Shown here piece by piece: positions 18,681-49,981 of a DNA stretch of 64,000 bases (position 1 is its first letter; each line of letters opens with the position of its first letter). Below the pieces are notes generated by a model that was not told the DNA's origin, made no database searches, and was given only the letters and a program-made list of their open reading frames with translations. The position numbers and the translations under genes are program-made. The stretch comes from Chloroflexota bacterium (GTDB taxonomy: Bacteria; Chloroflexota; Limnocylindria; Limnocylindrales; CSP1-4): positions 134,383 to 198,382 of the forward strand of contig JBIQKJ010000004.1 of assembly GCA_044506615.1 (NCBI GenBank), in the 5' to 3' direction.

Positions 18681-18685
18681 CCGGG

Positions 18686-20008: not shown

Positions 20009-20016
20009 CGAGACCC

Positions 20017-28732: not shown

Positions 28733-28853
28733 GCCGTTCCGCAACAGACGCCGGACGCCGCTAAGGGGTCTTCGCGAGCCTGACACGCTCCCGAGAGGGG
28801 CAGACCACGCGCTGCATCCGGCCCGGCCGGGCCGCCCGCGGTACCCTGAAGGG

Positions 28854-31725: not shown

Positions 31726-31793
31726 GGGCCGGAGGGTACCAGTACGGCCGGCCCACGGCGCCTCGCCGGCGTCGGCGGTACGATGCCCGACCG

Positions 31794-32516: not shown

Positions 32517-32547
32517 TCGGCGACCGAACGCTGCCGCGCCGCCGCCC

Positions 32548-33597: not shown

Positions 33598-35209
33598 CCT
33601 CCACCTCGACAGCTCGCCGCTGGCCTCCGCGGCTCGGACCGCTCGACAGCGCGAGCCCGGGCGGGATCGCGACGATCGTGAGGCCTGCCGCGACGACGAA
33701 CAGGCCGACCATGATCGCGGCCGCCTCGCGCGATGCCCAGTCCTCGAGCGCCTCGACGACGAACGGATCGCGCAGCGGCCGGTCCCGGAGCGCCTCCGGG
33801 AGGACCTCACGGTACGCCTCCGGTGTCGCGTAGATCTGCTGGGACAGCCGGTCGATCGTCGTGGAGCCGTAGGCCGTCAGGATCGCGAGCCCGATCGCCA
33901 TGCCGATCATGCGCGCGACCGTCACGACCGCCGACGCGACACCGAAGGCGCGGCGGCCGGCGGCCTCCACGGCCGCAGTCGACCGTGGCGTGACGGTCAA
34001 CCCGAACCCCAGCCCGTAGACACCGAGACCCGCCGCCACGGCCTCGATGGAGATGCCGCTGTCCCACCGGGACATCGCGAGCAGCCCCCCGACGCTCAGC
34101 GCGAGCCCGATCAGCGTCACGAGCCGGAGCGACAGCACTCGGACGGCGAAGCCAGAGACGAGCGCACCGATTGCTGTCGCGCCGGCGAGCGAGCCGAGCG
34201 CCAGCCGCTGCTCGTCGGGGCCGCCGTAGAGGACCCGGTCGACGAACACCGCCCCACCGATGATCGCGGTGGCGAACGCATAGCCGGTCAGCAGCGACAC
34301 GAGCGCCGCCGAGCTGAACGAGACGCTCCGGAACAGCCGCACATCGAGGAACGGGTGATCGGCCCGCAGGTCGCGAGCGACCGTGAGCAGCGTCGCGATG
34401 ACGGCCACCAGGAACAGGCCGAGCGTGAGCGTCGCGGGCTCGACGCCGGGGAGTGCGACCTCGGTCGAGCCGATCAGCGTCAGGCCGACGAGCGCCGTGC
34501 CGAGCGCGAGCGTGAACAGGGCCGCCCCGGGAAGGTCCACGCGGCCCGGCCGGTGCGGGGTCTCCCATCCGCTCGACGCCGCCCAACCGAGCACGAGCGC
34601 CGCGATCCCGATCGGGACGTTCACGTAGAAGACCCAGCGCCAGGCGGGTGCGATGACGCCGCCGAGCCCCTCGTCGAGCCCGAGGCGGACCACGGCTGCC
34701 TCCGGGTGCAGCCCACCGAGGATCGCCGCGCCGGCGAACGGCCCGGCCGCCATGCCGAGGAACGTCAGCGCCCCGATGACGCCGAGCGCGCGGGGCCGAT
34801 CGTGCCCCTCGAACAGGTGGGACGCGGCGGCCGTGGCGACCGGGACGAGGACCCCGCCGCCGGCCGCCTGGACCAGCCGCGCGGCAATCAGGCCGTCGAG
34901 GTCCCCGGCAGCGCCCGCCAGCAGCGACCCGACGATGAACACCGCGAGCGCCCCGAGGAACAGCCGGCGCGCTCCCCACAGGTCGGCGAGCCGGCCCGCG
35001 AGCGGCATCGTCACGACGTACACGAGCAGGTACCCGTTGACGATCCAGCTCGCCTTGCGCAGCTCGATCCAGGCCGTCCCGCCGGTCGGGCTGACCAGGT
35101 CGACCAGGATCGACGGCAGCGCCACGGCCGTGATCATCAGCTCCAGGCCGGCCAGGAAGACGCCGGTCCCGAACACGACGAGGAGCACGAGCGCCGAACC
35201 GCGGGCCAT
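33572..35209 (-). CDS. MFS transporter, 14-TM drug:H+ antiporter (DHA2/EmrB-like)
   Basis: 545 aa from MARGSALVLL. LELMITAVALPSI, GRLADLWGARR (motif A-like), and about 14 hydrophobic segments. Confidence 0.8.
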   Translation of the reverse strand: MARGSALVLLVVFGTGVFLAGLELMITAVALPSILVDLVSPTGGTAWIELRKASWIVNGYLLVYVVTMPLAGRLADLWGARRLFLGALAVFIVGSLLAGAAGDLDGLIAARLVQAAGGGVLVPVATAAASHLFEGHDRPRALGVIGALTFLGMAAGPFAGAAILGGLHPEAAVVRLGLDEGLGGVIAPAWRWVFYVNVPIGIAALVLGWAASSGWETPHRPGRVDLPGAALFTLALGTALVGLTLIGSTEVALPGVEPATLTLGLFLVAVIATLLTVARDLRADHPFLDVRLFRSVSFSSAALVSLLTGYAFATAIIGGAVFVDRVLYGGPDEQRLALGSLAGATAIGALVSGFAVRVLSLRLVTLIGLALSVGGLLAMSRWDSGISIEAVAAGLGVYGLGFGLTVTPRSTAAVEAAGRRAFGVASAVVTVARMIGMAIGLAILTAYGSTTIDRLSQQIYATPEAYREVLPEALRDRPLRDPFVVEALEDWASREAAAIMVGLFVVAAGLTIVAIPPGLALSSGPSRGGQRRAVEVEDGEVGVAL

Positions 35210-35347
35210 CCCGCGGAGTGTACCGGCGCGCCGCCGATCGGCCCGTCCAGAACGGACCCGATGGCCGTGGCGTGAGCGACCCACCGGACCTCACGCTCAC
35301 GATCGGGCGTCCCGGCGCCGGCACGGCCGGCTCGGAGGATGCGGCAC

Positions 35348-36292
35348 ATGACGCTGGTGATCGACGACCTCGCGAAGCGCTTCGGGCAGGTCCAGGCGCT
35401 CGACGGCGTGACGTTCCAGGTGCGCCCGGGCCAGGTGTTCGGGTTCCTCGGCGCCAACGGCGCCGGCAAGACGACGACGATGCGGATCGTGCTCGGATTC
35501 CTCGAGCCCGACCGCGGCTCGGTGACCTGGCGCGACCGACCGGCCGCGTCGTGGCCGCGGGTGACGTGGGGCTACATGCCCGAGGAGCGCGGCCTGTACG
35601 GCCGGATGCCGGTGCTCGAGCAGCTCGTGTACTTCGCGTCGCTGTACGGGGTGCCGCGAGCGAAGGCCCGGCGGGATGCGCTCGACTGGCTCGCCCGCTT
35701 CCGGATCGCCGAGTACGCCGACCGCCGGGCGGAGAGTCTCTCGAAGGGCAACCAGCAGAAGGTCCAGTACATCGCGACGGTCCTGCACGACCCGGACGTG
35801 CTGCTCATGGACGAGCCGTTCTCCGGGCTCGACCCGGTCAACGTCGCCCTCCTGAAGGCCGCCTTCCTCGAGATGCGCGACCGCGGCAAGACCCTCGTGT
35901 TCAGCACGCACCAGCTCGAGCAGGCGGAGGAGCTGTGCGACGGCGTGGCGATCATCGACCGCGGCCGGATCGTGACCGCCGGTCCGACCCGGGACGTCAA
36001 GCGCTCGACCGGCCACCAGGTGGTCCGCGTCGCGACGGCCGGGAATGGCGATCTCGCCTGGCTGCGCTCGCTGCCGCAGGTGACGGTCACCCGAGCTGGC
36101 CGGGACTACACCGAGCTCCACGTCGACGACGGCGCCGACCCGCAGTCGGTGCTGCGGGCGGCGATCGAGCGGGGCGAGGTGCTGCGGTTCGAGGTCGCCG
36201 ACCCGTCGCTCGAGGAGGTCTTCGTCGAGCGGGTCGGTGCGCTCGACGCCGACGAGCGCACGCTGGCGGCGGCACGGGAGGATCGGTCATGA
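35348..36292 (+). CDS. ABC transporter ATP-binding protein (ABC-2/NatA-like)
   Basis: Walker A GANGAGKTT, signature LSKGNQQKV, Walker B LLMDEPFSGLD. ATG at 35348 lies 9 nt after GGAGG (35334-38). An in-frame ATG at 35339 is too close to that SD. Confidence 0.85.
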   Translation: MTLVIDDLAKRFGQVQALDGVTFQVRPGQVFGFLGANGAGKTTTMRIVLGFLEPDRGSVTWRDRPAASWPRVTWGYMPEERGLYGRMPVLEQLVYFASLYGVPRAKARRDALDWLARFRIAEYADRRAESLSKGNQQKVQYIATVLHDPDVLLMDEPFSGLDPVNVALLKAAFLEMRDRGKTLVFSTHQLEQAEELCDGVAIIDRGRIVTAGPTRDVKRSTGHQVVRVATAGNGDLAWLRSLPQVTVTRAGRDYTELHVDDGADPQSVLRAAIERGEVLRFEVADPSLEEVFVERVGALDADERTLAAAREDRS

Positions 36293-37611
36293 CCACGTGG
36301 CACAACATCGTGTCGGTCGCACGCCGCGAGCTGCTCGTCCGGATCCGCACCCGAAGCTACATCGCCGGCACGCTCCTGCTCGTTGCCGGGGTGCTCGCGA
36401 TCGCGCTGCTCCCCGTGATCGTGCGCGTGGTCGAGGGCGTGAGCACCAACCGCATCGCGGTGGTCGCCCCGAGCCCGACCATCGGCGAGCGGGCCTCGAT
36501 GACGATCACGAGCCTGCTCAACACGTCGGTCGTCGGGACCGCGGATCCCGAGACGCCGGACTTCGTCGTGACGATCGTCCCCGACCTCGACGAGGCGCGC
36601 TCGGGCGTGCTCGACGGCACGTACGGCGCCGTGCTCGGGATCGAGCGCACCGCCGGGGACGAGCTGTCGTTCACGCTCTACACGAACGAGTCCGCGACGG
36701 GTCGCACGGCCGGCCTCATCCAGCAGGGTGCGAACGCGATCGCGATCGGCGACCGGCTCGACCGCCTGGGGGTGGCGCCCGGCGAGCAGGCGACGCTCTT
36801 CACGCCGGCCGAGTTCGGCGTCCGGTGGCCCGACCCTGCCCGGACCGACCGCATCTCGACCACGACCGCCGGCACGATCAGCCAGGACATGCTCGGCTTC
36901 GGCATGACGATCCTGATCTTCATGATCATCCTCATGTACGGCAACTGGATCGCGATGAGCGTGGTCGAGGAGAAGTCCTCGCGCGTCATGGAGGTGGTGC
37001 TCAACGCCGCGACGCCGTTCCAGCTGCTGACCGGCAAGGTCCTCGGCGTCGGCGCGGCCGCGTTCCTCCAGTACGCGGCGATCGTCGGCGCGGGCCTGAT
37101 CGCGGTCGTCGGCCAGGGCGCGGTCGCCTCGCTGGTGCTCGACGATCCGGCGGCGGTCGTGGCTGTCCCCAACGGGCTGACGCCGGGCCTCCTGCTGCTC
37201 TTCGGCGTCTACGGCGTGCTCGGGTTCCTGCTGTACGCCTCGCTGTTCGCCGCAGCCGGGTCCCTCGTGAGCCGGCTCGAGGACGTCAACGCGGCCGTGA
37301 TGCCGCTCACGCTTGCCTCGACCGGGGGCTACCTGGTCGGCGTGTATGCCGCGATGGGGCTGCTCGACATCCGATCGGGCTGGATCGGGGCGCTGACCCA
37401 GGTGCCGTTCCTGAGCCCGTTCATGATCCTGGGCCGGATCACGACCGGCGTCGCCGAGCCATGGGAGATCGTCCTGTCGATCGTGCTCCTCGCGGCAGCC
37501 GTCGCGGCCGCGCTGTGGGTCGCCGCTCGGATCTACCGCGCGGGCGTGCTGCTGTACGGGCAGCGGCCCGGGATCCGGGCGGTCTTCCGGCTCGTCCGGG
37601 CGGGTATCTGA
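36289..37611 (+). CDS. ABC-2 family transporter permease (NatB-like, with a large extracytoplasmic loop)
   Basis: 440 aa with an ATGA overlap to the ATPase. One N-terminal TM, an approximately 170-aa loop, then 5 TM segments. Confidence 0.75.
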   Translation: MTTWHNIVSVARRELLVRIRTRSYIAGTLLLVAGVLAIALLPVIVRVVEGVSTNRIAVVAPSPTIGERASMTITSLLNTSVVGTADPETPDFVVTIVPDLDEARSGVLDGTYGAVLGIERTAGDELSFTLYTNESATGRTAGLIQQGANAIAIGDRLDRLGVAPGEQATLFTPAEFGVRWPDPARTDRISTTTAGTISQDMLGFGMTILIFMIILMYGNWIAMSVVEEKSSRVMEVVLNAATPFQLLTGKVLGVGAAAFLQYAAIVGAGLIAVVGQGAVASLVLDDPAAVVAVPNGLTPGLLLLFGVYGVLGFLLYASLFAAAGSLVSRLEDVNAAVMPLTLASTGGYLVGVYAAMGLLDIRSGWIGALTQVPFLSPFMILGRITTGVAEPWEIVLSIVLLAAAVAAALWVAARIYRAGVLLYGQRPGIRAVFRLVRAGI

Positions 37612-37724
37612 GGGTCGATCGCGAACCCGTCGGTCACGCCGAAGCGGGTCACGTACGACCCGGGTTCCGTCGCCTACGCGCCCCGTGCGTGGTATCCGCC
37701 CGCCAGAGGCGGGTTCCGGTCACC

Positions 37725-37741
37725 TACGCACGGCGTGCGTA
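37725..37741. promoter_or_regulatory. perfect 17-bp palindrome TACGCACGGCGTGCGTA within a pair of about 31-bp imperfect direct repeats
   Basis: Read directly from the sequence. The repeat units CGGGTTCCG-TCGCCTACGCGCCCCGTGCGT (about 37660-37690) and CGGGTTCCGGTCACCTACGCACGGCGTGCGT (about 37710-37740) lie in a 330-nt non-coding gap. Confidence 0.4.
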
Positions 37742-37906
37742 CTTGGCGCCGATCCACGCTCGACGCCGGGGCGAGGGTCGCCGAACCCGTGGATAGCACG
37801 CGCCCCACGCGTAGGTGCGAGAAAGACGGCGGCCGAGAAAGGGCGGCGCCCCGGCCGGCGCCACGGTCCCGGTGCAGACGTGGTGGGCGCACGAACCCCA
37901 GGGGGC

Positions 37907-37936
37907 TTGACGACCCGTTTCGCATCAATGTAGGTT
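37907..37936 (+). promoter_or_regulatory. candidate sigma-A type promoter for the ArsR/PI operon (-35 TTGACG, 18-nt spacer, -10 TAGGTT)
   Basis: The only AT-richer patch in the gap (cttgacgacccgtttcgcatcaatgtaggttgatataaacc). The predicted TSS is around 37943-37950, next to TTG 37951 and ATG 37954. Confidence 0.4.
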
Positions 37937-38036
37937 GATATAAACCGCCGTTGATGCGACGGCGCGGCATGCCCCACGCACCAGCACACCAGAGGCACAC
38001 ACCCTGTCCCCCTCCCCCGCCCGCGTCCGCAGCACG

Positions 38037-38387
38037 ATCGCCACGATCGTCGATCAGCCCGACGAGCTTCGGGCGCTCCGCGCGTTCCACAAGACGCTCG
38101 CCGACGTCAACCGCCTGCGGATCGTCCAGCGGCTCGCCGGCGGCGACGCCAGCGTGACCGAGCTCATCGACCACGTCGGGCTGAGCCAGCCGCTCGTCAG
38201 CTGGCATGTCGGCAAGCTGCGCGACGCCGGTGTCGTCGAGACGACGCGGATCGGCCGCGAGACCGTGTGCCGCCTCAACACCGACGCCTTTGCCGAGTTC
38301 GCCGCCCGGGAGCGCGCGGTCCTCGGACTCGATGCCCAGCGGCCGAACCCGCTCGCTCGACCCGCGACCGACCGGGCCGCCTCGTGA
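38037..38387 (+). CDS. ArsR/SmtB-family winged-helix transcriptional regulator (start codon unresolved)
   Basis: The in-frame translation ...IVDQPDELRALRAFHKTLADVNRLRIVQRLAGGDASVTELIDHVGLSQPLVSWHVGKLRDAGVVETTRIGRETVCRLN is a complete ArsR HTH. The frame is open from 37944 but has no ATG/GTG/TTG before GTG 38154, which lies inside the HTH. See the corresponding finding. Confidence 0.6.
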   Translation: MATIVDQPDELRALRAFHKTLADVNRLRIVQRLAGGDASVTELIDHVGLSQPLVSWHVGKLRDAGVVETTRIGRETVCRLNTDAFAEFAARERAVLGLDAQRPNPLARPATDRAAS

Positions 38388-39016
38388 CCGGCTCGCTGGT
38401 GACCCCCGAGTTCCGCAGCCGCGTCCGCGGTCTGGCCGTGCCGGTCGCCACCGCGCTCGGCCGGCTCGGGCTGACCCCGAACGCGCTGACCGTCATCGGC
38501 TTCCTCGGCACGTGCGCGGCCGCCGCAGCGGCTGCGACCCAGGCCTGGGCCCTCGCCGGCGTCCTCGTGATCGCCTTCGGGATCTTCGACCTCTTCGACG
38601 GGGCGCTCGCACGCGCCACCGGCCGGGCGACGCGCTTCGGCGCCTTCCTCGACTCGACGCTCGACCGCACCGGCGAGAGCCTCGTCCTCGCCGGCGTGGC
38701 CGTCGGGTGCGCGGCGAGCGGCTTCCTCGAGGGCACGCTCCTCGCGGGGACCGCTGCCACGTTCGCGTCCGGCGTCACGTACACCCGCGCGAAGGCCGAA
38801 TCGATCGGTCTCCACGGCGAGGTCGGCGTCGCGCCGCGACCCGAGCGGCTCGTCATCCTGGCGGCCGGGCTCGTCCTCGCCGGCGCGCTGGCCGCCGACA
38901 CCGGCGCCACCGCGCTCGCGATCGCGCTCGGGCTCATCACCATCCTCTCAGCCATCACGGTCCTCCAGCGGATCGTCCACGTGAAACACCAACTCGGACA
39001 GGAACAGCAGGGTTAG
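38384..39016 (+). CDS. pgsA: CDP-alcohol phosphatidyltransferase, phosphatidylinositol-phosphate synthase-like
   Basis: 210 aa with a GTGA overlap to the ArsR gene. The motif [27 protein letters not shown] matches D(x)2DG(x)2AR...G(x)3D(x)3D. Its position directly upstream of ino1 supports inositol-1-P as substrate. Confidence 0.8.
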
Positions 39017-39035
39017 CAGGAGCGACGGAGAGCAC

Positions 39036-40301
39036 ATGGCAGGCAACGGCAAGAACGGCAGCAGCGCCAACGGCAGCACGCCGAGCAACACCTGGGCGGG
39101 CAGCGCCCGACGCAAGGACGGCAAGATCCGCGTCGCGATCGTCGGCGTCGGCAATTGCGCGAGCAGCCTCGTCCAGGGCCGCTACTACTACGAAGACGCG
39201 AAGGAGACCGACTTCGTCCCGGGTCTCATGCACGTCAACCTCGGCGGCTACCACGTCCGCGACATCGAGTTCGTGGCAGCCTTCGACGTCGACAAGAACA
39301 AGGTCGGCAAGGACCTGTCCGAGGCGATCTACACGAAGCCGAACAACACGTACGTCTTCCAGCAGGTCCCGAACCTCGGCGTGAAGGTCGAGCGCGGCAT
39401 GACCCACGACGGGCTCGGCAAGTACCTCAGCCAGATCATCGAGAAGGCCCCGGGCCCGACCGCCGACGTCGTCGGCATCCTCAAGGAGCGCGAGGTCGAC
39501 GTGATGGTCTCGTACCTCCCGGTCGGCTCCGAGGAGGCGACCAAGTGGTACGTCGAGCAGGCCCTCAAGGCCGGCGTCGGGTTCATCAACGCCATCCCGG
39601 TGTTCATCGGCCGCGAGCCCTATTGGCAGCGCCGCTTCGCCGAGGAAGGCCTGCCGATCATCGGTGACGACATCAAGAGCCAGGTCGGCGCCACGATCAG
39701 CCACCGCGTGCTGACCCGCCTGTTCATGGACCGCGGCGTCCGGCTCGATCGGACCTACCAGCTCAACTTCGGCGGCAACACGGACTTCCTCAACATGCTC
39801 GAGCGCGAACGCCTCGAGTCGAAGAAGATCTCGAAGACCAACGCCGTCACCTCGATGCTCGATTACGAGCTCGAGGACGACGACGTCCACGTCGGGCCGT
39901 CGGACCACGTGCCGTGGCTCCAGGACCGCAAGTGGTGCTACATCCGGATGGAGGGCACGACCTACGGTGACGTGCCGCTCAATGCGGAGCTCAAGCTCGA
40001 GGTCTGGGACAGTCCGAACAGCGCGGGCGTCATCACCGACGCGATCCGCTGCCTCAAGCTCGGTCTCGACCGGGGCCTGAGCGGCACGCTCGTCGCGCCG
40101 TCGAGCTACTTCATGAAGAGCCCCCCGCAGCAGATCCACGACGACATCGCGTTCAACCGCGTCGAGGCGTTCATCCGCGGCGAGGACACCGAGACGCTCG
40201 TCGGCACCGAAGCGCCCCAGAAGCGGCAGCTCCGGAAGCTGGCCTCGACGAAGGCCAGCCCCGAGCAGGTCGCGACCCGGACGACGGCCGCCGCGAAGTG
40301 A
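39036..40301 (+). CDS. ino1: myo-inositol-1-phosphate synthase
   Basis: 421 aa. [16 protein letters not shown] (NAD site), [38 protein letters not shown]. These match the bacterial/archaeal MIPS pattern. Confidence 0.9.
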
Positions 40302-41341
40302 CGTCGCGCGAACGCGAGCTCGAGGCGCCCCACCGGCGCCTCGAGCCGGGCCCGCGCATCCTCGAGAAGACGGCCGTCCTCGGCTACCGTGCCGCGGAGG
40401 CCGTCCTCGGATTCCTGCCGCCGGGTCCGCCGCGCTGGATCCTGGGACGCCTCGCGCAGGCCTCGTACCTGCTCTGGCCGACGAAGCGGCGCTGGTCGAA
40501 CCGGAACTTCGGGCACGTGCTCGGCCTGCCCCCGAGCGACCCGCGGGTGCGCCGGCTCGCGCTTCGCGCGTACGCCGAGTACGGCCGCTACCTGACCGAG
40601 CTGCTGCGTCTGCCGTCGCGCGACGCGGCCGAGATCGACCGACTGGCCGGCGACCTCGACGCCGACGAGGTCATGCGCCTGCTTCGGTCCTCGCCGGGCG
40701 GGCTGATCCTGGCCGCCGCGCACGTCGGCAACAACGAGGCCGTGGCTGCGTCGATTGCCCGGCACGGGCTCCCGATCAGCGTCGTCGCCGACGACTCCTC
40801 GTTCCCCGAGCTGTTCGAGCACCTCCGCCGGCAGCGCGAGGGGTGGGGGATCAGCGTCATCGCGTGGCGCAACCTGCGCGGGATCTTCGGCGTCCTCCGA
40901 CGCAAGGAGATGCTTGCGCTGCTCGTCGACTGGGGGTACCGGTCGGACGGGATCCCGGTCCAGCTGTTCGGCGCGTGGACGGCGCTGCCCGCCGGCCCGG
41001 CCACGCTTGCGGCGAAGACGGGTGCGCACATCCTGTCGATCCAGATGGGCAGGCGGCCGGACGGCACCTTCGGCGTGACCTGGCGCGAGCCGGTCGTCGT
41101 CGCATCCAGCGACCCGGCTGAGCTCCAGCGGGCGACCCAGCAGCTCGCCGACGAGCTGGCCGACACGATCCGCCGCGCGCCCGAGCAGTGGTACAGCTTC
41201 AAGCCGATGTGGCCGTCCTCCCCCGATGAGGCCGCCGACCTCGAGCGCCGGGCGCGGATCATGCAGTCGGGTCGACCGGATCCCGGTCCGGACCGGCGAC
41301 GCCGACGCGATCCGGCCGAGCTGGCGGTCGAGGGCGCATGA
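40298..41341 (+). CDS. lysophospholipid/PIM acyltransferase (LpxL/HtrB/PatA family)
   Basis: 347 aa with a GTGA overlap. The family pattern includes AAHVGNNE (HxxxxD/E-like region), LVDWGY and the C-terminal [12 protein letters not shown]. Confidence 0.7.
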
Positions 41342-42330
41342 CCCGCGCGCGGGGAACCGTCGGGCAGCGGATCCGGGCGTGGCTGGTCGCGCTCGTGTCG
41401 GCGCTCGTCGTGCGCCTGCCCGAGGGTCCGCTCACCCGCCTCGCCGAGCTCGGCGGGGAGCTGTGGTATCGGCTCGCATCGGCCCGCGCAGCGCAGGCCC
41501 GGCGCAACCTCCGGCGCGTGGCACGCAGCCTCGCCCACCGCGATCTCGGCTCGCCGCTCGTGCGCGCCGCCGCGACCGACGACCGTGCGCTGGAGCGGCT
41601 CGTCCGCGCCGCCTTCCGCCACAACGCCCGCTACTACCTCGAGGTGGCGCGCGTCCCCGCGCTCCGCGACCGGGACATCGACCAGCGCGTCCTGATCGAG
41701 ACGCCCGACACGGTCGCGGCAGCGTTCGAGAACGACCGCGCCGTGATCTTCGTCGGGCTCCACTTCGGCGCCATCGAGCTCCCGGCGCGCTTCCTCGCCG
41801 CCCGCGTCGGGCAGGCGGTCGCTCCCATGGAGACGATCGGCGACCCGGCCCTCCAGGCGTGGTTCGTCCGCACCCGGGGCGCAAGCGGGATCCGGATCGT
41901 CGGGCTCCGCGAGGCTCGCCGGGAGCTCCTCGCCTCGCTGCGAAACGGCGTCTCGGTCGGGATCGTCGGCGACCGCGATCTGACCGGCGGCGGGCTGCCC
42001 GTGCCGCTGTTCGGCGCGCCGGCGGACGTGCCGCTCGGCCCGGCGATGCTCGCCGTCGAGAGCGGCGCGCCGGTGTTCGTGGCCGGGGTCCGCCGAGCCG
42101 GCGTGGGCCGGTACCGCGGGCGCCTCGAGCCCGTCGCCGTCCCGGCGGACGGCACCCGCCGCGAGCGGGTCGTGGCGACCACGCGGGCGATCGCCGCGGC
42201 GTTCGAGCGGATCATCGCCGATGCGCCCGAGCAATGGTGGGCGGTCTTCTTCCCGATCTGGCCGGACCTGGAGGCGGCCGAGGCCACGCCCGCGCCCCGG
42301 GCGACGGTCGCCGGAGAGCACGGCCGATGA
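41338..42330 (+). CDS. second LpxL/HtrB-family acyltransferase (paralogue)
   Basis: 330 aa with an ATGA overlap. GLHFGAIE, IVGDRDL and the C-terminal PEQWWAVFFPIWP parallel the preceding gene. Confidence 0.7.
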   Translation: MTRARGTVGQRIRAWLVALVSALVVRLPEGPLTRLAELGGELWYRLASARAAQARRNLRRVARSLAHRDLGSPLVRAAATDDRALERLVRAAFRHNARYYLEVARVPALRDRDIDQRVLIETPDTVAAAFENDRAVIFVGLHFGAIELPARFLAARVGQAVAPMETIGDPALQAWFVRTRGASGIRIVGLREARRELLASLRNGVSVGIVGDRDLTGGGLPVPLFGAPADVPLGPAMLAVESGAPVFVAGVRRAGVGRYRGRLEPVAVPADGTRRERVVATTRAIAAAFERIIADAPEQWWAVFFPIWPDLEAAEATPAPRATVAGEHGR

Positions 42331-43196
42331 CGCAGGGGACCCCCGCCACGACCGCGACGAGCACGGCCACGCCGACCGGCAAGGCAGACCTCCATCTGCA
42401 CACGCTGGCCTCGGACGGGACGGTCGGCGTCGGGGCGATCCTGGACCATGTCGAGCGGACCGACCTCGACGTCATCGCGATCACCGACCACGACCGGATC
42501 GACGCCGCGCTCGTCGGACGCCGCATGGCGGCCGATCGCGGGCTGCGCGTCGAGGTCGTCGTCGGCGAGGAGGTCACGACGCTGGGCGGCCACCTGCTGG
42601 CCCTGTGGGTCGATCGGCGCATTCGACCGCTGCGCACGCTGAGCGCGACGATCGCCGAGATCCACGACGCCGGGGGGATCGCGATCCCGGCTCACCCGCT
42701 GGTCCCGTACCCGTTGTGCGCGCAGGGCTGGGTCCTCCGCGGCCTCCTCGACCGCTCGGATCCGCGCTTCCGGCCGGACGCCCTCGAGACGTTCAACCCG
42801 ACGATGCTCGGTCGCCCCTGGCACACGCGGGTCGTGCGCTTCGCGGAACAGCACGGTCTCGCGATGGTCGGCAACAGCGACGCGCACGCGCTCCCTGCGA
42901 TCGCTGCGGGCTGGACGGAGTTCCCCGGCACGACCGCCGCCGAGCTGCGGCGGGCCATCGAGTCCGGCGCGACGCGGCATCGCGGCTCGTTCCACGGCTC
43001 GGCCGGGCAGCTCCGAACGTTCGGGCAGCAGCTCCGCAAGTACGGCCGCGACGCCCGCGCCGAGCTCGCGGGACGAGTCCGGCGCGACGGCACGGGCCGC
43101 GATCTCGGCTATCCCGGCGGACACCTCCGCCCGGTCCGCGAGCACGGCGGCGGCCTCGAGCCGGGCCGGGACGAGGAGCGGGAGGGGGCGCGATGA
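42327..43196 (+). CDS. PHP-domain metal-dependent phosphoesterase
   Basis: 289 aa with an ATGA overlap. ADLHLHTLASDGT, IAITDHD, IPAHP and GNSDAHA form a histidine/aspartate pattern typical of the PHP (polymerase and histidinol phosphatase) superfamily. Confidence 0.75.
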   Translation: MTQGTPATTATSTATPTGKADLHLHTLASDGTVGVGAILDHVERTDLDVIAITDHDRIDAALVGRRMAADRGLRVEVVVGEEVTTLGGHLLALWVDRRIRPLRTLSATIAEIHDAGGIAIPAHPLVPYPLCAQGWVLRGLLDRSDPRFRPDALETFNPTMLGRPWHTRVVRFAEQHGLAMVGNSDAHALPAIAAGWTEFPGTTAAELRRAIESGATRHRGSFHGSAGQLRTFGQQLRKYGRDARAELAGRVRRDGTGRDLGYPGGHLRPVREHGGGLEPGRDEEREGAR

Positions 43197-44515
43197 AGAT
43201 CGGTCTCGTCTGCCCGTACATCTACCCCGAGTCGGGCGGCGTCGCCCAGCACGTCGGGTACCTCTACGACAACCTGCGGCTGCGCGGCCACGACGTGCGC
43301 ATCATCACGGCCTCGCACGGCCCGCAGCGGGCATCCGAGGGCGACGTGATCCGGCTCGGCGTCGGGTTCTCCGTGCCGACCAACGGCTCGGTGGGGACGC
43401 TGACGTTCTCGCCGCGCTACCTGTCCCAGATCCGGGACATGCTCGAGCGCGAGCGGTTCGACCTGCTCCACTTCCACGAGCCGTTCGTGCCGTTCCTGTC
43501 GCTCTTCCTGCTGCGCGAATCGCGCAGCGTCAACGTCGCCACGTTCCACGCCTACGCCGGCTTCTCGCCCTCCTACGAGTTCGGCCGGCGCTTCCTCGGC
43601 GGGTACGCTCGGCGGCTCCACGGACGCATCGCGGTCTCGGCCGCCGCGCGCCACTTCATCGACCGCTTCTTCCCGGGCGACTACAAGGTCATTCCGAACG
43701 GGGTCGACGTCGACCGGTTCCAGCGGGCCGTGCCGCTCGCGAAGTGGCAGGACGGGACGAAGAACCTGCTGTTCGTCGGGCGCCACGAGCCGCGCAAGGG
43801 ACTGCTCGACCTCCTCAAGGCGTACCGGATCCTGCGCAAGACCGGCTGCGACTGCCGGCTGCTCGTCGTCGGGAGCGGGCCGCAGGAGCGCGAGGCCCGG
43901 CGATACGTCGCCACCCGCCGCCTCAGCGGCGTGGAGTTCCTCGGGCGCGTGAGCGACAGCGAGAAGGCCCAGCTGTTCCGGACCGCCGACGTCTTCGTGT
44001 CACCGGCGACCGGCGGTGAGTCGTTCGGCATCGTCCTGCTCGAGGCGATGGCCGCCGGCGCGCCGATCGTCGCGTCCGACATCCACGGCTACAAGGGCGT
44101 CGTCCGTCGCGGGCGCGAAGGTCTGCTGGTGCCGCCCCGCCAGCCGAAGCCGTTGGCCGCGGCCATGGCGAAGCTTCTCGGCGACGACGACCTCCGCGCG
44201 CGGATGAGCGAGAGCGGCACCGAGCGGGCGGCCGAGTTCAGCTGGCCGCGGATCACCGAGCGGGTCGAGGCCTACTACGGATTCGTCATTCGCCGGCTGG
44301 CGGCCGCGGACGCGCTCCCGCCCGGGTTCACCGCCGAGGTGCCGCCCAAGCCGGCGTCCCCCGAGCAGCTGCGGCTCATCGACGCCGCGGCGCTGCGGGC
44401 GACCGAGCCCGGGGGCCCAGCCGGCAGGACCGAGCCGGTGCCGCCCGCGACCGACGGCTCGGGGCCGGTCGACCCGGTCCGGGATCTGACCCGAACCTCC
44501 TCCGACGACCGCTGA
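43193..44515 (+). CDS. pimA: GT4 glycosyltransferase, phosphatidylinositol alpha-mannosyltransferase-like
   Basis: 440 aa with an ATGA overlap. MKIGLVCPYIYPESGGVAQHV, GRHEPRKG, and ESFGIVLLEAMAAGAPIV (E(x)7E). It has an approximately 70-aa Pro-rich C-terminal tail. The pimA assignment rests on context with pgsA and the acyltransferases. Confidence 0.75.
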   Translation: MKIGLVCPYIYPESGGVAQHVGYLYDNLRLRGHDVRIITASHGPQRASEGDVIRLGVGFSVPTNGSVGTLTFSPRYLSQIRDMLERERFDLLHFHEPFVPFLSLFLLRESRSVNVATFHAYAGFSPSYEFGRRFLGGYARRLHGRIAVSAAARHFIDRFFPGDYKVIPNGVDVDRFQRAVPLAKWQDGTKNLLFVGRHEPRKGLLDLLKAYRILRKTGCDCRLLVVGSGPQEREARRYVATRRLSGVEFLGRVSDSEKAQLFRTADVFVSPATGGESFGIVLLEAMAAGAPIVASDIHGYKGVVRRGREGLLVPPRQPKPLAAAMAKLLGDDDLRARMSESGTERAAEFSWPRITERVEAYYGFVIRRLAAADALPPGFTAEVPPKPASPEQLRLIDAAALRATEPGGPAGRTEPVPPATDGSGPVDPVRDLTRTSSDDR

Positions 44516-44516
44516 T

Positions 44517-44557
44517 CCCCGGCGCGGGACCGACCCGGCGTCGGCGCGGCCCGGGGG
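44517..44557. terminator. GC-rich hairpin between convergent genes (candidate bidirectional terminator, no U-tract)
   Basis: CCCCGG(44517-22)...CCGGGG(44551-56) outer stem, CGCG/CGCG inner stem, and a CCGAC-loop-GTCGG core. It occupies the whole 42-nt gap between pimA and the giant GT-C gene. Confidence 0.3.
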
Positions 44558-47500
44558 TCAGCCGGGCGCGGGCCCGGCGCTGCCGACCGTGGCATCGATG
44601 CCTCGCTCGCCGGCCGCCCGCTCCGCCTCGACGATCCGCCAGGACCATGCCGAGTAGGCCACGACGAGACAGGTGATCGCCACCGCCGCGAGCAGGAGCG
44701 CGAGCATCGGCGTGAACAGCGGCGTGACCGCGTTGCGCTCCGCGGTGTTCACCGGGAAGTCGAAGTAGTAGAGGTACGTGGGCAGCAGGCCCTGGTACGC
44801 GTTGACCACCGCCGACGGCAGCCGCAGCCCCGAGATGTTCGGGTAGAACGCGACGAACGTGGCGACGACCGCCACGAGCAGCCCGCCGACGAACCGGCGC
44901 GGATCCCGCGCCCGCAGCACCTGCAGCGCGAGCCAGCCGAGCGGGACCGCGACGACCAGCGCGATCGGCTCGACCGGGACGTTCTCGAGCCGCAGCAGCT
45001 CGCCGTCGCCGACGAGCGCGACTCCGAGCATCGCGACCGCGACGATCGCGGCGGTCACACCGAGGCGAAGGAGCGAGCCGGTCGGCGACCCGTCCCGGCC
45101 GCGCCCCCCGAGCAGCAGCACCTCGCGGATGAGGAACAGCCCCCCGAGCACGAGCACGGCCGCGAGCAGCGCGGTCCGGGCGGTCAGCACGAAGCTCGGG
45201 ATGAGCTCGGGGCAGGCCGGTCCGGGTTCCACGCCGACCGCCCAGCACAGCGGCCGCGACAGCAGGTGCAGTACGGCCGGCGCGACGATGGCCGCCGCAG
45301 CAGCGGCCTTGGCGAGAAGCCACGTCCGGCGCGACGGACCGTGCCACAGCTCGGCGACGAAGTAGGCGAGGGCGAGGATCACGAACGGCAGCGCCGTGTA
45401 GTAGTGGTACTGGAACGCCGCCCGGTCGATCCTGGCCCACGGCACCCATTGCGCCGCAAAGCCGATCGCGATCAGCGCGAGCGCGAGGCTGCGTCGCCGA
45501 TACGCCTGCCACGCCACGAACGCGAGCGCCGGCACCCCGATCCACCAGATCACGAGGTTGCCCGCGTCGTAGATCGACGCCGCGGTACCGGTGTCGAAGC
45601 TCTCCTGGTAGAACCAGACCGGCTTCAGGTTGAACGGCCACGCCCACCACGGCGAGGACGCCGCGTGCTCGGCGGTGAGCTGGTCGTGGTAGCGGTACAT
45701 CTGGGCGGTCAGGTCGGCCAGCGTCTGGCCGGTGTGGCCGGCCGGGAAGCCGGCGATGATTCGGTGGTTCTCGATGGCCGCCCATGGCAGGTACGACGCG
45801 ACGTAGATCGCGAGGGGGATCACGACGAGCGAGATCGCGGCCCACACGAGCGGCAGCCCGAGGAGCCAGCCCGGTCGCAGCCAGGCGGTCGGTGGCGCCG
45901 CCGGCGGATCGAGCAGCCGCACCGGGTCGTCGGGGGCCGGCACGCGTGCGAGCGGCCCGAAGCCGGCCCGGCCGGCCACGACGAACAGCCCGTACACGAC
46001 CGGCGCGAGGATCGCGAGCACGAGCGCCACCTCCAGCGGCGTCACCTCCAGCGGCCCGACCGCGACGGGCTGGGTCTCCCGCCCGAGCGCGAGGGCGCCG
46101 AAGAAGACGACGACCGCTCCCGCCGCGGGCGCGAGCACCGCGAAACGGAACTCGTCGGTGGACCAGGCGATGGGGTGCGTGACGGTCACGACCACGGCGA
46201 CGAGCGTGAGCGCGACCATCAGCAGCAGGAACGGCACGTTCCCGAAGCCGGCCTGCCCCTCGGGGACGCTCATCGCCATGTAGCCGAGGACGACCGTGAT
46301 CCCGACGAGACCGGCGATCGCGACGATCCGCCCGAGCGCGCTCCGCACGAGCAGCAGGAGCGCGATCGCCCCGATCGAGTAGGCGGCGATCCACTTCGTC
46401 GCGAGCGCCAGCCCGAGGAACATGCCGACGATCGGGAGCAGGACCCAGAAGGCCCAGCGCCCTCGCCAGCGTTCCGTCCAGAGCAGCGCGAACACGACGT
46501 AGGCGGCAACGAGGCACAGGCCGAGCACCGCGTCGATCATGCCGATCCGCGAATGGGCGAAGAGCATCCCGTCGAGCAGCGCGAACGCGCCGGCAAGGAC
46601 CGCGACGTCGCGGCGCCGGAAGAGGATCCGTGCGAGGAGGTAGAGCAGCCCCGCCATCAGGGCCCCGGCGACGACCCCCGGCAGCCGCCAGGCGAACGGG
46701 TTGCCGCCGATCTCGACGGTCGCGACCGACCCGGCCTCGTCCCCGGCAAAGGCGAGGAGCTGTTGGCGGTCGCTCTGCGGGCGCTCCGATGCGATGTCCC
46801 AGGCGAGCGCCGAGGGCTCGAAGGGCAGCACGGCGTCGGCGTAGGGCGCGTTGGCGTGCGGCTCGATCACGTAGACCGTCCAGCCGGCGCCGTCCTGGGT
46901 GCGCCCGAGCACGTGGACCATCTCGGTCGCGTCGTTGAACGCGATCCGGGTGCCGGGTCCGGGCAGGAAGTTCGTGCTGGCGATCTCCGGCGACGTCGCC
47001 TCGTCGCCCCCGAGCGAGACGACCGTGAACGAGGGATCGTCGGGCGGGCCGGTCGTCGCGTACAGCTGGTCGCTGTCGACGTGCACGCGGGTCAGGCCGT
47101 GGGCTCCTCCGGCGATGTCCAGCCGGGCCACCTCGGCGGCGCCGGCGACCTCGAGGAACACGATCCCGTCCGTGCCCGCGACCGCGATCCTGGCCAGGTC
47201 GGCGACCTCGATCCCCGGCAGCTCGCCGGCCGCGATTGCTTCGTCGATGTCGGTGCGCGCCGCATCGTCGGGGATCCCGGTGATGACGGTGCTCGCCTCG
47301 CCCAGCGCGAGCCGCTCCTCGTAGTCCGCCGCGTCGCCGCCGAGGATCTCGACCAGTCGCTGGGCGGCGGCGGCCGGATCGGGGACGTCGCCCGGCGTCG
47401 ACACGACCGCGGGTCCGGTCCCGGCCTCGGCGAGGTCTGCCAGGCCGGCCACGGAGGCCGACGCGAGGACCTCTCCGCTGTCGCGGTCGAGGATCGCGAG

Positions 47501-49957
47501 CTCGTCGCCGGACGCGGCCACGAGCGTCGTCCCGTCCCCGGTGGCGAGGAGGTGATCGACCGGTTGCCAGGTCGCGACGAGGAACGGCTCGAGCGGCGCG
47601 CCGCCGTCCGCCGCCGCGAGGTCGACGCCGTACAGGTCGCCGTCGGCCGTCCCGACGAACAGCTGCCGGAGCTCGTCGTCGAGCGTGAGCGCGCGCGGCT
47701 GCGCGACGTCGAGCGTGGCGATCAGGTCGCGCGACGCCAGGTCGTAGACGCGCAGCCCGTCGTCGGCGGCGACGTACAGGCGGTCGCCGACCTCCTGCCC
47801 GCTGCCGAACGGGTCGGTTCGTCGGGGCTCGACGAGCGCGTCGAAGACCGGCGAGCCGACGGCGCTCGTGGCGCTGACCCGGTTGTCCCCGAGCAGCGCG
47901 ATCCCGCCGGCCAGCACGTACTTGCCGAGGTGCGGGTGCGTCCACTCGTAGATGTCCTGCGATTCGCCGTAGCGCCAGACCTGGAGGAACTCCGCCGCGG
48001 TCTGGACGTGGTGCACCTCGTCGAAGTGGAAATGCGGCGGCTCGCCGAGCCGGAACGTGCGGAGGACGAGCGTGGCGACCACGAGCACGATGAGCAGCCA
48101 GACGTCGAGCCGGTCGATGCGACCGCCACCCTCACGCCTGAGCAGGAGGCTCCGGTCCGCCCGGATCGAGGGACCTGCCAGCCGGTCGAGGCGATCGTCG
48201 GCCGTCCGCCGCCGCGCGGCGAGCGGATCGACCGCCGCCGGGAGCGGATCGAGCGCCGGGCCCTCCGCCGCGCCGGGGCGCATCGTCGTGGGCGACGCCG
48301 GCTCGTCGTCGGGAGGCGGGGCGGTTGTCAGGCGCATCTCCGGCGGGGCGACCACCGCAGGGCGGTGCGGCGCGGCCTCGTGGCCCGGAGACGCGTCGCC
48401 GGGGGCCGCGGGCGCGTCCTCGGACAGCGGCTCCCGCGCGCCGGCCTCGGCAATCTCGTCCGCGAGGCGCTCGCGGCTGTCGGCGCGGAGCTGGGCGAGG
48501 CCCCAGGCGAACGCCACGAGATGGACCATCGCCACGATCGTCACGCCCGGCGCCGAGCGCAGGGCCTGCCCGATGCCCAGCCAGTCGACGACGCCGACCG
48601 CGCTGTGATCGAAGAGCGTCGTGAGGACCACGTACAGGTTCGCGAACGTCGCCGCCGACAGGACGACGTAGGCGAGCCGCCAGCGGATCGAGACCGCGGC
48701 GAGGATCGCGCCGAGCGCGAAGAACGGGAACATGTAGCGCTCGTGCACGCGGGTCGGGACGACGAAGAACGCCATCGCGAGCAGCGCGAGACCGACGAGC
48801 AGCGTCGCCCGGTCGGGCGAACGGGCGACGAGCCACAGCACGAGCGCGATCGACGCGAGCAGCAGCGTCGTGCCGACGAGCACCGCGGGAATGGGACCGA
48901 ACGTGACCGTGCCGGTGCTGCACCGGTCGCCGCCGCTGTCGTTCGGCGCGACGTTCGGGGTGTCGCAGATCCAGTACCCGTCGGCGGCCAGGCTGTAGCC
49001 GAGGTCCCCGGGGATCAGCGCCCACGGGTTGTAGGCGTTGACGGTCGTGTACGGATAGCCGCCGGCGGCCACGCCGACCTGCTCGAGCAGCCCCGAGCGA
49101 ATGAACGGCGCCTCGGGCGACGGCTCCACCACCGACAGCCCGAACGGCGCCGCGAGCACGACCGCGGTCACGAACCCCGCCAGCGCCGTCGTCAGGATGC
49201 GGACCGGTCGGTCGGTTCGGCGCTCCCAGGCACGGAACCGCTCCCCGGCGCCCGCGCCGGGAGGGGTGGCCGGGCGCTCGGGCGGCGGATCGTCGCCGTA
49301 GGCACCGCGCGGCCACAGCGCGCGGCGGATCGTGACGACGGCCACGAGCGGTACGAGGATCCCGAGCTGCGGCTTGATGATCGCCGCGGCCACGGTCAGG
49401 ACCGCCGCGCGCTCCGGCCGGTCGCGCCACAGCTCGCGCAGCGCGAGCAGGAGGAACACCGCCCCGAACGCGTCGACCTGGCCCCACACGGCGCTGTCGA
49501 ACCAGGTGACCGGATTGAGCACGACGAGGGCGGCGCCGAGGAGCGCGACTCCCTGGCGCGCGCCGAGCTCGCGAGCCATCGACCAGACCAGCCAGCCGAG
49601 GGCCGCGTCGGCGAGGATCGCGGGCAGCTTGACGAGGTCGCCGATGCCCCCGATCGCGCTCCCGACGACGCCGACCAGCCACAGCACGTAGAGGTAGCCC
49701 GGCGTGTAGTCGGCGAAGGCGACCCGATCGTAGAAGCCGTACGGCCCGCCGGCCGCCAGCTCGGCCGCCCACGCCCGGAACGAGACGACGTCGGTGATGA
49801 ACCCGGAGCCGGGCAGCAGGACGTATGCAATGATGAATCGGAGGGCGAGCCCGATCGCGAGCACGACCGCGACCGCGGCGACGGCCCCTGGGATCCCGGC
49901 AGACCGTGACGACGTTCGCGCGCTTCGCTCGGTCCCACCCCTGGCGGGGCCAGTCAC
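44558..49957 (-). CDS. 1799-aa polytopic membrane protein fusing two GT-C glycosyltransferase modules: an N-terminal GT-C domain (family not assignable by eye) and a GT39 protein-O-mannosyltransferase-like domain carrying a beta-propeller-like insert of about 390 aa
   Basis: Lower 1799 codons of ORF 44558..51748, with GTG at 49957. Module 1 (about aa 1-495): FADYTPGYLYVLW, KLPAILADA, WGQVD. A Pro/Ala linker follows (about aa 495-610). Module 2: FHFDEVHHVQTAAEFL, EWTHPHLGKYVLAGG, then repeats such as LYVAADDGLRVYDLASRDLIATLDV and LFVGTADGDLYGVDL, then AWRLPGVVAGALMAGLLYLLARILF, HSRIGMIDA, and the C-terminal SSPWWAWPFNLKPVWFYQ (PMT C-terminal 4-TM region). No stop codon separates the modules. 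Confidence 0.7.
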   Translation of the reverse strand: MTGPARGGTERSARTSSRSAGIPGAVAAVAVVLAIGLALRFIIAYVLLPGSGFITDVVSFRAWAAELAAGGPYGFYDRVAFADYTPGYLYVLWLVGVVGSAIGGIGDLVKLPAILADAALGWLVWSMARELGARQGVALLGAALVVLNPVTWFDSAVWGQVDAFGAVFLLLALRELWRDRPERAAVLTVAAAIIKPQLGILVPLVAVVTIRRALWPRGAYGDDPPPERPATPPGAGAGERFRAWERRTDRPVRILTTALAGFVTAVVLAAPFGLSVVEPSPEAPFIRSGLLEQVGVAAGGYPYTTVNAYNPWALIPGDLGYSLAADGYWICDTPNVAPNDSGGDRCSTGTVTFGPIPAVLVGTTLLLASIALVLWLVARSPDRATLLVGLALLAMAFFVVPTRVHERYMFPFFALGAILAAVSIRWRLAYVVLSAATFANLYVVLTTLFDHSAVGVVDWLGIGQALRSAPGVTIVAMVHLVAFAWGLAQLRADSRERLADEIAEAGAREPLSEDAPAAPGDASPGHEAAPHRPAVVAPPEMRLTTAPPPDDEPASPTTMRPGAAEGPALDPLPAAVDPLAARRRTADDRLDRLAGPSIRADRSLLLRREGGGRIDRLDVWLLIVLVVATLVLRTFRLGEPPHFHFDEVHHVQTAAEFLQVWRYGESQDIYEWTHPHLGKYVLAGGIALLGDNRVSATSAVGSPVFDALVEPRRTDPFGSGQEVGDRLYVAADDGLRVYDLASRDLIATLDVAQPRALTLDDELRQLFVGTADGDLYGVDLAAADGGAPLEPFLVATWQPVDHLLATGDGTTLVAASGDELAILDRDSGEVLASASVAGLADLAEAGTGPAVVSTPGDVPDPAAAAQRLVEILGGDAADYEERLALGEASTVITGIPDDAARTDIDEAIAAGELPGIEVADLARIAVAGTDGIVFLEVAGAAEVARLDIAGGAHGLTRVHVDSDQLYATTGPPDDPSFTVVSLGGDEATSPEIASTNFLPGPGTRIAFNDATEMVHVLGRTQDGAGWTVYVIEPHANAPYADAVLPFEPSALAWDIASERPQSDRQQLLAFAGDEAGSVATVEIGGNPFAWRLPGVVAGALMAGLLYLLARILFRRRDVAVLAGAFALLDGMLFAHSRIGMIDAVLGLCLVAAYVVFALLWTERWRGRWAFWVLLPIVGMFLGLALATKWIAAYSIGAIALLLLVRSALGRIVAIAGLVGITVVLGYMAMSVPEGQAGFGNVPFLLLMVALTLVAVVVTVTHPIAWSTDEFRFAVLAPAAGAVVVFFGALALGRETQPVAVGPLEVTPLEVALVLAILAPVVYGLFVVAGRAGFGPLARVPAPDDPVRLLDPPAAPPTAWLRPGWLLGLPLVWAAISLVVIPLAIYVASYLPWAAIENHRIIAGFPAGHTGQTLADLTAQMYRYHDQLTAEHAASSPWWAWPFNLKPVWFYQESFDTGTAASIYDAGNLVIWWIGVPALAFVAWQAYRRRSLALALIAIGFAAQWVPWARIDRAAFQYHYYTALPFVILALAYFVAELWHGPSRRTWLLAKAAAAAAIVAPAVLHLLSRPLCWAVGVEPGPACPELIPSFVLTARTALLAAVLVLGGLFLIREVLLLGGRGRDGSPTGSLLRLGVTAAIVAVAMLGVALVGDGELLRLENVPVEPIALVVAVPLGWLALQVLRARDPRRFVGGLLVAVVATFVAFYPNISGLRLPSAVVNAYQGLLPTYLYYFDFPVNTAERNAVTPLFTPMLALLLAAVAITCLVVAYSAWSWRIVEAERAAGERGIDATVGSAGPAPG

Positions 49958-49981
49958 CTGGGGAACGGCTCCTGCACGAGC

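Follow-up and report, generated by a model that had tools for sequence, protein, structure and literature searches.

In a stretch of 64,000 nucleotides from a Chloroflexota bacterium (the window; contig JBIQKJ010000004.1 of assembly GCA_044506615.1), seven genes lie head to tail on the plus strand from 38004 to 44515, and together they probably form an operon for the synthesis of phosphatidylinositol (PI) and acylated phosphatidylinositol mannosides (PIMs). One of the seven encodes a PHP-family phosphoesterase, which we propose as a candidate for the phosphatase that converts phosphatidylinositol phosphate (PIP) to PI. The genes, and the junction of each with the next as read directly from the sequence, are as follows:

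38004-38387, plus strand: ArsR, an ArsR/SmtB-family winged-helix regulator and the first gene, probably starting at a CTG (NF033788, 70.7 bits against a cut-off of 55); GTGA overlap with the next gene
38384-39016, plus strand: PIPS, a PgsA1-like CDP-alcohol phosphatidyltransferase (PF01066) whose GTG start overlaps the ArsR stop; 19-nt spacer containing GGAG before the next gene
39036-40301, plus strand: Ino1, a myo-inositol-1-phosphate (inositol-3-phosphate) synthase (PF01658, 122.8 bits); GTGA overlap with the next gene
40298-41341, plus strand: AcT1, a PatA-like acyltransferase of the LpxL/HtrB superfamily (PF03279, 96.8 bits); ATGA overlap with the next gene
41338-42330, plus strand: AcT2, a PatA-like acyltransferase paralogue (PF03279, 127.2 bits); ATGA overlap with the next gene
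42327-43196, plus strand: PHP-family phosphoesterase of 289 amino acids, candidate PIP phosphatase (PHP_C, PF13263, 47.2 bits against a cut-off of 21.3); ATGA overlap with the next gene
43193-44515, plus strand: PimA-like GT4 glycosyltransferase, the last gene of the operon (GT4 Pfam domains)

The families named in a first-pass annotation of this DNA are borne out for all seven genes by matches to Pfam, NCBIfam, and PDB sequences, and public gene calls agree on the starts of PIPS (210 amino acids), the PHP protein (289), and the PimA-like protein (440). That annotation also took the row to be translationally coupled throughout. This holds at five junctions, where start and stop codons overlap by 4 nt, and the ATGA overlaps it described on both sides of the PHP gene are real; the junction between PIPS and ino1, on the other hand, is a spacer. 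It was likewise right that an ArsR gene heads the operon, although the start it gave for the locus, 38384, leaves that gene out. The identical seven-gene order is present in 29 independent genome loci, so the arrangement is not a product of chance. The nearest whole loci and the nearest homologues of the PHP protein (65-72% identity) come from metagenome-assembled genomes (MAGs) labelled Candidatus Limnocylindria/Limnocylindrales or 'uncultured Chloroflexia'; the closest relatives are thus Chloroflexota, not Actinobacteria.

The two-step bacterial route to PI, by way of PIP, was defined in 2010, and whether this locus needs a phosphatase depends on what its transferase makes. The best PDB match of the window PIPS is PgsA1 of Mycobacterium tuberculosis (6h53, 2e-24), with Renibacterium PIPS also at about 1e-24; weaker matches are AF2299 (4o6m, 8e-8) and DIPP synthase (4mnd, 5e-6). 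It scores 142.6 bits against the PIPSynth model NF045883 and 148.5 bits against the archaetidylinositol-phosphate (AIP) synthase model NF040950, under the cut-offs of 170 and 180; these scores mark it as divergent and intermediate between the two models. The CDP-alcohol phosphatidyltransferase motif, D69xxD72G73xxA76R77x8G86xxxD90xxxD94, is present, and each of its named residues (D69, D72, G73, A76, R77, G86, D90, and D94) is invariant in 12 Chloroflexota PIPS sequences. So too are R152, R155, and R196; the window RPER motif (R152 and R155) and R196 align to the ERPER and QR motifs of the M. tuberculosis enzyme, which contain its R155 and R195. Clarke et al. (PMC4634129) report that those two mycobacterial arginines bind the phosphate of inositol phosphate, are required for inositol phosphate to bind, and are conserved in every PIP synthase but in no eukaryotic PI synthase. 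Given that both phosphate-binding arginines are kept, the window transferase should make PIP rather than PI, and a phosphatase would be needed to supply PI, the substrate of PimA.

The same arginines bear on the possibility that the PHP protein is a soluble inositol-monophosphate phosphatase and that the transferase uses free inositol, as eukaryotic PI synthases do. Such a scheme would fit the presence of ino1 in the same operon in many loci, and no gene of the inositol monophosphatase family was seen in the operon. The transferase, however, not only keeps both inositol-phosphate arginines but groups with the PIP and AIP synthases, not with PI synthases (PMC4634129); a phosphatase of this kind would compete for the substrate of PIPS, and the PHP gene stays with PIPS at loci where ino1 is not nearby. 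We consider this explanation highly improbable. The window Ino1 itself scores 538 bits over the full TIGR03450 model, below the 638-bit cut-off, and is 75-93% identical to its counterparts in related loci. An exact look-up of public records with its 421-amino-acid open reading frame (ORF) gave no match, so the true start may lie downstream of 39036.

The PHP protein matches PHP_C well above threshold and PHP (PF02811) just below it (23.2 against a cut-off of 26.4); its Ktedonobacteria homologues carry both domains. An AF2 model built with 50 homologues (mean pLDDT 84.8, and above 90 over most of residues 20-220) places the PHP barrel core in residues 17-222, followed by a helix (225-247) and a disordered tail. 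Every Foldseek match to this model with E < 1e-3 is a PHP domain (TM-scores 0.5-0.6), and the model points to a distorted (beta/alpha)7 barrel. Its structural neighbors include BVU_3505, the PHP domain of RNase AM, TM0559, PsfC, and Cv1693, with the pAp phosphatase 2yb1 among them. The closest are two PHP/PHP_C proteins, TM0559 (2anu) and BVU_3505 (3e38), at E values of 1e-11 to 1e-9; TM0559 is similarly compact in domain size, and BVU_3505 is a two-domain protein. Both are only 19-21% identical to the window protein (TM-scores as above); neither has been assigned a function or is known to be linked to PI genes.

Across 66 PI-linked homologues, nine residues of the PHP protein (H23, H25, D30, H55, E82, H89, H123, D185, and H187) show conservation of 94% or more, and all nine are identical in the aligned Escherichia coli RNase AM. 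These residues, in the pattern HxH, D, H, E, H, H, DxH, we take to be the ligands of the trinuclear metal site of PHP enzymes. The metal site is intact, and by its conservation the catalytic machinery should be as well.

The PHP protein could instead be a passenger in the operon: a CehA/McbA-type hydrolase, or a housekeeping enzyme of the TrpH/YciV type (RNase AM or pAp phosphatase). The family goes by generic public names ('TrpH', 'PHP-associated', 'phosphotransferase', 'CehA/McbA'), and it is as 'TrpH' that sources would support this view; in addition, the N-terminal 70 residues align to RNase AM, and the best match among NCBIfam models is that of the CehA/McbA domain, where the protein scores 71.7 bits and the cut-off is 80. 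The TrpH/YciV enzymes (RNase AM) and the Cv1693-type 3',5'-nucleoside bisphosphate phosphatases do share with the window protein the PHP fold and the nine metal ligands. They differ from it in genomic context and in an insert of about 85 residues, a subdomain that sits between the third and fourth core strands in TrpH and RNase AM; residues 87-104 of the window protein correspond to residues 77-179 of RNase AM, and the insert is absent. Scores against the models for these enzymes are also far below the equivalog cut-offs: 51 bits against 375 for RNase RNM (NF047791), and 32.6 against 400 for the bisphosphate (pAp) phosphatase (NF041577). The mean distance to E. coli RNase AM is 1.75, compared with 0.96 within the PHP family. 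On these sequence comparisons, we conclude that the protein is not a TrpH-type enzyme. Moreover, a passenger would not have remained a neighbor of PIPS while the gene order changed five or more times across the classes, as described below, and we find the passenger explanation scarcely credible.

Unlike PIPS, the only operon protein with membrane spans, the PHP protein has no signal peptide or transmembrane segment in its sequence. Helix 225-247 is amphipathic and basic, with a hydrophobic moment of 0.64 and a net charge of +4, and three of its basic residues (K238, R241, and R244) are at least 90% conserved across the Limnocylindria-type and Ktedonobacteria proteins, which are about 37% identical overall. 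This C-terminal helix may hold the protein at the membrane surface; a basic amphipathic helix without a transmembrane segment or signal peptide fits work at the cytoplasmic face, where PIPS, PimA, and PatA act.

The first-pass annotation had singled out the PHP gene by its position in a single operon, suggesting that its co-occurrence with PIP synthase genes be examined. We scanned 185,579 species genomes (GTDB, one per species) for the PHP gene and searched the seven window proteins against the 80 loci returned by tblastn. PIPS lies within 6 kb of PHP in 36 of the 42 loci that have at least 5 kb on both sides, and PimA is present in 33 of these 42. The converse scan, centered on PIPS in metagenomes, returned mostly short contigs; wherever a contig continues for 4.3 kb or more beyond PIPS, which is so for 17 contigs, the PHP gene is on it, and one more variant of the cluster emerged, without ino1. 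The coupling of the two genes is therefore conserved in both directions, and clustering with TrpH/YciV enzymes regardless of PI genes, the outcome that the annotation named as fatal to its proposal, is not what we see.

At least six gene orders, spread over the classes of the Chloroflexota, underlie these counts. The order in the window, ArsR-PIPS-Ino1-AcT-AcT-PHP-PimA, is found in the 29 loci of Limnocylindria type mentioned above. Loci labelled Anaerolineae, Thermoflexia, or Dehalococcoidia have (ArsR)(Ino1)-AcT-AcT-PHP-PimA-PIPS, with further orders being Ino1-PHP-PimA-PIPS and PHP-PimA-PIPS. Finally, five Ktedonobacteria-type loci have ArsR-PHP-PIPS alone. One of them belongs to Ktedonobacter racemifer DSM 44963 (L063; ArsR at 9183-9584, PHP at 9860-10723, and PIPS at 11120-11923), where tblastn found no PimA, acyltransferase, or ino1 within about 10 kb of the three genes. 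The Ktedonobacteria loci thus identify PIPS as the partner that stays with PHP when the rest is gone. PI is a major polar lipid of Dictyobacter, a cultured genus of Ktedonobacteria (PMC12453558), which indicates that the end product in this class is PI and not PIP and fits a two-gene route, PIPS plus a phosphatase, ending at PI.

These loci also help to judge whether the PHP protein acts in the PI/PIM pathway on a different phosphoester: a mannosylated or acylated PIP, if the GT4 acts first; CDP-diacylglycerol; a lipid pyrophosphate; or CMP, GDP, or another nucleotide released as a by-product. PHP is immediately upstream of PimA in every locus with PimA on the same strand, and its structural neighbors include diesterases and nucleotidases (RNase AM and the pAp phosphatase 2yb1). 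In clearing nucleotides, the PHP protein would also resemble the Nudix domain that ends the mycobacterial operon, where the last gene encodes a Nudix/LemA protein (bioRxiv 10.64898/2026.07.15.738315). The Ktedonobacteria pairs without PimA, acyltransferase, or ino1 nearby, however, oppose a role with GDP or a mannoside; no known step of the pathway needs hydrolysis of CMP or CDP-diacylglycerol, and the nucleotide-binding insert of the TrpH-type enzymes is absent from this protein. We regard a different phosphoester as unlikely, if less so than the inositol monophosphatase or the passenger. PIP remains the substrate that we favor: that the PHP protein is the PIP phosphatase, the proposal of the first-pass annotation, has become a well-founded prediction, supported by its linkage to PIPS in several gene orders across the Chloroflexota, and we think it somewhat likelier right than wrong.

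Two sets of contigs in the scan call for separate comment. In the draft genome of Dictyobacter formicarum (L084), a PIPS homologue at 9040-9811, after ArsR-PHP, is split over two frames with no gene called, reflecting either an assembly error or a pseudogene. The Chloroflexota-type cluster, in whole or in part, also occurs in contigs binned as Verrucomicrobiia (L008, 5.8 kb), Actinomycetes (L047, 31.9 kb), and Candidatus Udaeobacter (L070, 3.3 kb); these probably reflect faulty binning and not gene transfer.

Several observations weigh against the assignment of PIP as the substrate. Ten loci have PHP homologues, 35-46% identical, with no PI genes near them, and six of these have at least 5 kb on both sides. 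Their neighbors are mixed (QueA, a GT4, LytR, an MGDG-synthase-like protein, an aminotransferase plus a radical SAM protein, and an SLT protein), and no second consistent gene context emerged among them. The unlinked genes may encode the same enzyme away from the PI cluster, or they may encode paralogues that act on other substrates. Apart from the catalytic residues common to both sets, no residue conserved at 85% or more separates the PI-linked from the unlinked proteins. Nor is PI linkage a clean property of a clade: the bootstraps fail to split linked from unlinked sequences, and the main linked group excludes every unlinked sequence in no more than 2 of 80 neighbor-joining replicates. Many linked loci are close relatives, such that raw counts overstate the number of independent observations; the independence of the PHP-PIPS linkage rests on about 5-6 distinct arrangements and several classes. 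PHP-fold enzymes carry out phosphomonoesterase, diesterase, and nuclease reactions, among others, so the substrate does not follow from the fold. That the PHP protein acts on PIP is a prediction drawn from comparisons between genomes and from the conserved active site. The analysis covered 64 kb of this genome, and another phosphatase may exist elsewhere in it. Last, the mycobacterial pgsA1-patA-pimA operon has no PHP gene and the Bacteroides enzyme for this step belongs to the PgpA family (see below), so the assignment would be lineage-specific.

Two lines of evidence that had looked favorable were set aside. A first neighbor-joining tree was clean, with the unlinked PHP sequences at its base, but the bootstraps gave no support for monophyly of the PI-linked proteins; the one robust clade is that of the Ktedonobacteria, recovered in 80 of 80 replicates. 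Fusions of PHP with GT4 and of acyltransferase with PHP in a 50%-identity library, which might serve as Rosetta-stone evidence, proved by local BLAST to be mostly partial-domain mosaics; an example of the fusion type is a 1253-amino-acid protein comprising AcT1, AcT2, PHP, and PimA. With overlaps of 4 nt between neighboring genes, a single indel can be enough for a fusion, and we rejected this evidence as unreliable.

Among the unlinked PHP genes themselves, two flank an MGDG-synthase-like glycosyltransferase in one locus (L069, 5452-8809). Two MAGs of Actinobacteria have PHP near B12-radical-SAM and class I/II aminotransferase genes (L077, 6847-10699, and L081, 7299-10702); the aminotransferase directly precedes PHP in L081, and a small cNMP-binding gene lies in between in L077.

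The remaining enzymes of the operon would act on the PI so formed. The GT4 protein matches PimA of M. smegmatis (4n9w/2gej) at 8e-64 over residues 1-362, with the next family at 1e-22, and is predicted to be a phosphatidylinositol alpha-mannosyltransferase-like enzyme, mannose being its likely sugar donor. No PimB'-like second mannosyltransferase is encoded within the operon. AcT1 and AcT2 are about 30% identical to each other, and both are retained in most related Chloroflexota loci. Their PDB matches are to PatA chains only (2e-21 for AcT1 and 1.8e-14 for AcT2), and each has an H-x4-E motif in its translation, HVGNNE in AcT1 and HFGAIE in AcT2. The best NCBIfam model of AcT1 is that of the PIM acyltransferase, NF005919, at 128.3 bits; AcT2 scores 136.5 bits against the same model. 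As both fall below the cut-off of 209, the two appear PatA-like, and these scores do not establish orthology to PatA. The mycobacterial enzyme that acylates the inositol of PIM is still unidentified (PMC9490103), and this makes the second paralogue a candidate for a second acylation.

Taken together, we consider it probable that the locus is a self-contained operon for the synthesis of PI and acylated PI-mannosides, under an ArsR-type regulator and with the PHP protein as the candidate PIP phosphatase. In the pathway we propose, Ino1 would produce L-myo-inositol-1-phosphate, which the PgsA1-like PIPS would join to CDP-diacylglycerol to give PIP. The PHP protein, as a cytoplasmic trinuclear-metal phosphoesterase, would then strip the inositol phosphate of PIP (phosphatidylinositol 3-phosphate) to yield PI; PIP to PI is the sole step without a gene and PHP the sole gene without a step. 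Next, the PimA-like GT4 would glycosylate PI to PIM1, and the two PatA-like enzymes would acylate it, presumably yielding mono- and di-acylated PIM1. All of these proteins except PIPS, having no membrane spans, would act at the cytoplasmic face.

The closest known counterpart is the mycobacterial PIM operon, Rv2613c-pgsA1-patA-pimA-Rv2609c, which likewise brings together a PgsA1-type PIPS, a PatA-type acyltransferase, and a PimA-type GT4; indeed, solved mycobacterial structures are the best or only PDB matches of the window PIPS, acyltransferases, and GT4. To this set the Chloroflexota locus adds ino1, a second PatA paralogue, ArsR, and PHP, and it is without the HIT-like and LemA/Nudix genes of the mycobacterial operon. 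The earlier observation that ino1 within the operon and tandem acyltransferases set this locus apart from the mycobacterial arrangement therefore stands as far as the genes go, the comparison being one across phyla.

A second counterpart is BT_1522-BT_1526 of Bacteroides thetaiotaomicron, where MIPS, PIP synthase, and PIP phosphatase genes are clustered and the clustered phosphatase turns PIP into PI (PMC9246714). There the phosphatase is PgpA-like and the products are inositol sphingolipids, not mannosides, whereas the Chloroflexota candidate is a PHP protein, with no PgpA domain among its Pfam or NCBIfam hits. Genetic and lipidomic evidence identifies the PgpA-like BT_1525 as a PIP phosphatase (PMC9246714), and thus the first-pass annotation's remark that no gene had been firmly assigned to this activity does not hold for Bacteroides, so far the one group in which the enzyme is known. 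It does hold for the Actinobacteria: the wording 'as-yet-unidentified phosphatase' was already used in 2015 (PMC4634129), and a preprint of July 2026 still calls the actinobacterial PIP phosphatase 'as-yet unidentified', EphE, an alpha/beta-hydrolase, having been proposed without biochemical proof (bioRxiv 10.64898/2026.07.15.738315). In the literature searched, neither a PHP-type PIP phosphatase nor the presence of PIMs or PimA in Chloroflexota is reported. What is new here is a PHP-family, non-homologous candidate for the known reaction from PIP to PI, in a type of PI/PIM operon that was already known.

At the head of the operon, the ArsR frame (37944-38387) has no ATG, GTG, or TTG upstream of 38154, yet the helix-turn-helix begins earlier. 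CTG 38004 aligns with the GTG or TTG start codons of the ArsR genes of relatives, and for this reason we think that the window gene most likely starts there; a GAGG is found 8 nt before it. A canonical ArsR start at that position is missing in two of the relatives as well (L012 and L019). ArsR heads the cluster in the Limnocylindria-type, Ktedonobacteria, and some Anaerolineae-type loci. A promoter/terminator scan of 37500-44800 returned three weak terminator-like hairpins, where 1.3 would be expected, and no promoter-like sites. Scanning the window with Rfam gave no match, and no rRNA or tRNA is present.

A gene for a 1780-amino-acid PMT-family GT-C protein (44558-49900, minus strand) converges on the end of the operon, followed by one for a 511-amino-acid protein (49910-51445, plus strand) whose counterpart in a related locus, L001, matches TMEM260_N. 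The PMT gene occupies this position in 30 Limnocylindria-type loci, 24 of which also have a detected TMEM260-like gene; neither was seen in the loci of other classes. The two proteins might extend the glycolipid or mannosylate proteins with polyprenol-phosphate-mannose. The region upstream of the operon (28683-37611) encodes a trehalose-6-phosphate-synthase-like GT20, a protein that weakly matches a sortase domain, CorA, an MFS transporter, and the ATPase and permease of an ABC transporter. L001 likewise has CorA and the MFS transporter upstream; its called genes do not include the ABC pair.

The window is about 73% G+C, a composition that gives rise to many long spurious ORFs on both strands, and genes were therefore called not by ORF length but by family matches, third-position GC content, and conservation. 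ORFs of up to 1547 amino acids in the wrong strand or frame overlap real genes (44376-47945 on the minus strand, 45266-49909 and 41226-43196 on the plus strand, and others); these very long overlapping ORFs are a by-product of the composition and not genes. A 1540-amino-acid ORF at 18040-22662, inside a run of NADH-dehydrogenase genes (13.5-27 kb), failed the codon-composition filter.

If the assignment is true, the step from PIP to PI would be a case of non-orthologous replacement, with a PHP enzyme standing beside the PgpA type of Bacteroides and the actinobacterial enzyme. Thousands of proteins now labelled 'TrpH' or 'PHP-associated' could then be correctly annotated; in a wider form of the reading, the broader compact PHP/PHP_C family would be lipid head-group phosphatases. 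By itself, the finding would not identify the mycobacterial enzyme or a drug target. Support across the phylum makes the candidate readily testable, as a small soluble protein for which a short-chain substrate is commercially available. To our knowledge, acylated PIMs have so far been regarded as a hallmark of the Actinobacteria. That a PHP-fold enzyme is the PIP phosphatase of the Chloroflexota, that many Chloroflexota make acyl-PIMs, and that the second PatA paralogue performs a second acylation is a combined proposition on which we are evenly divided; if it is true, a PIM-type glycolipid pathway would be documented in the Chloroflexota, a phylum abundant in soil and freshwater whose envelope is poorly known.

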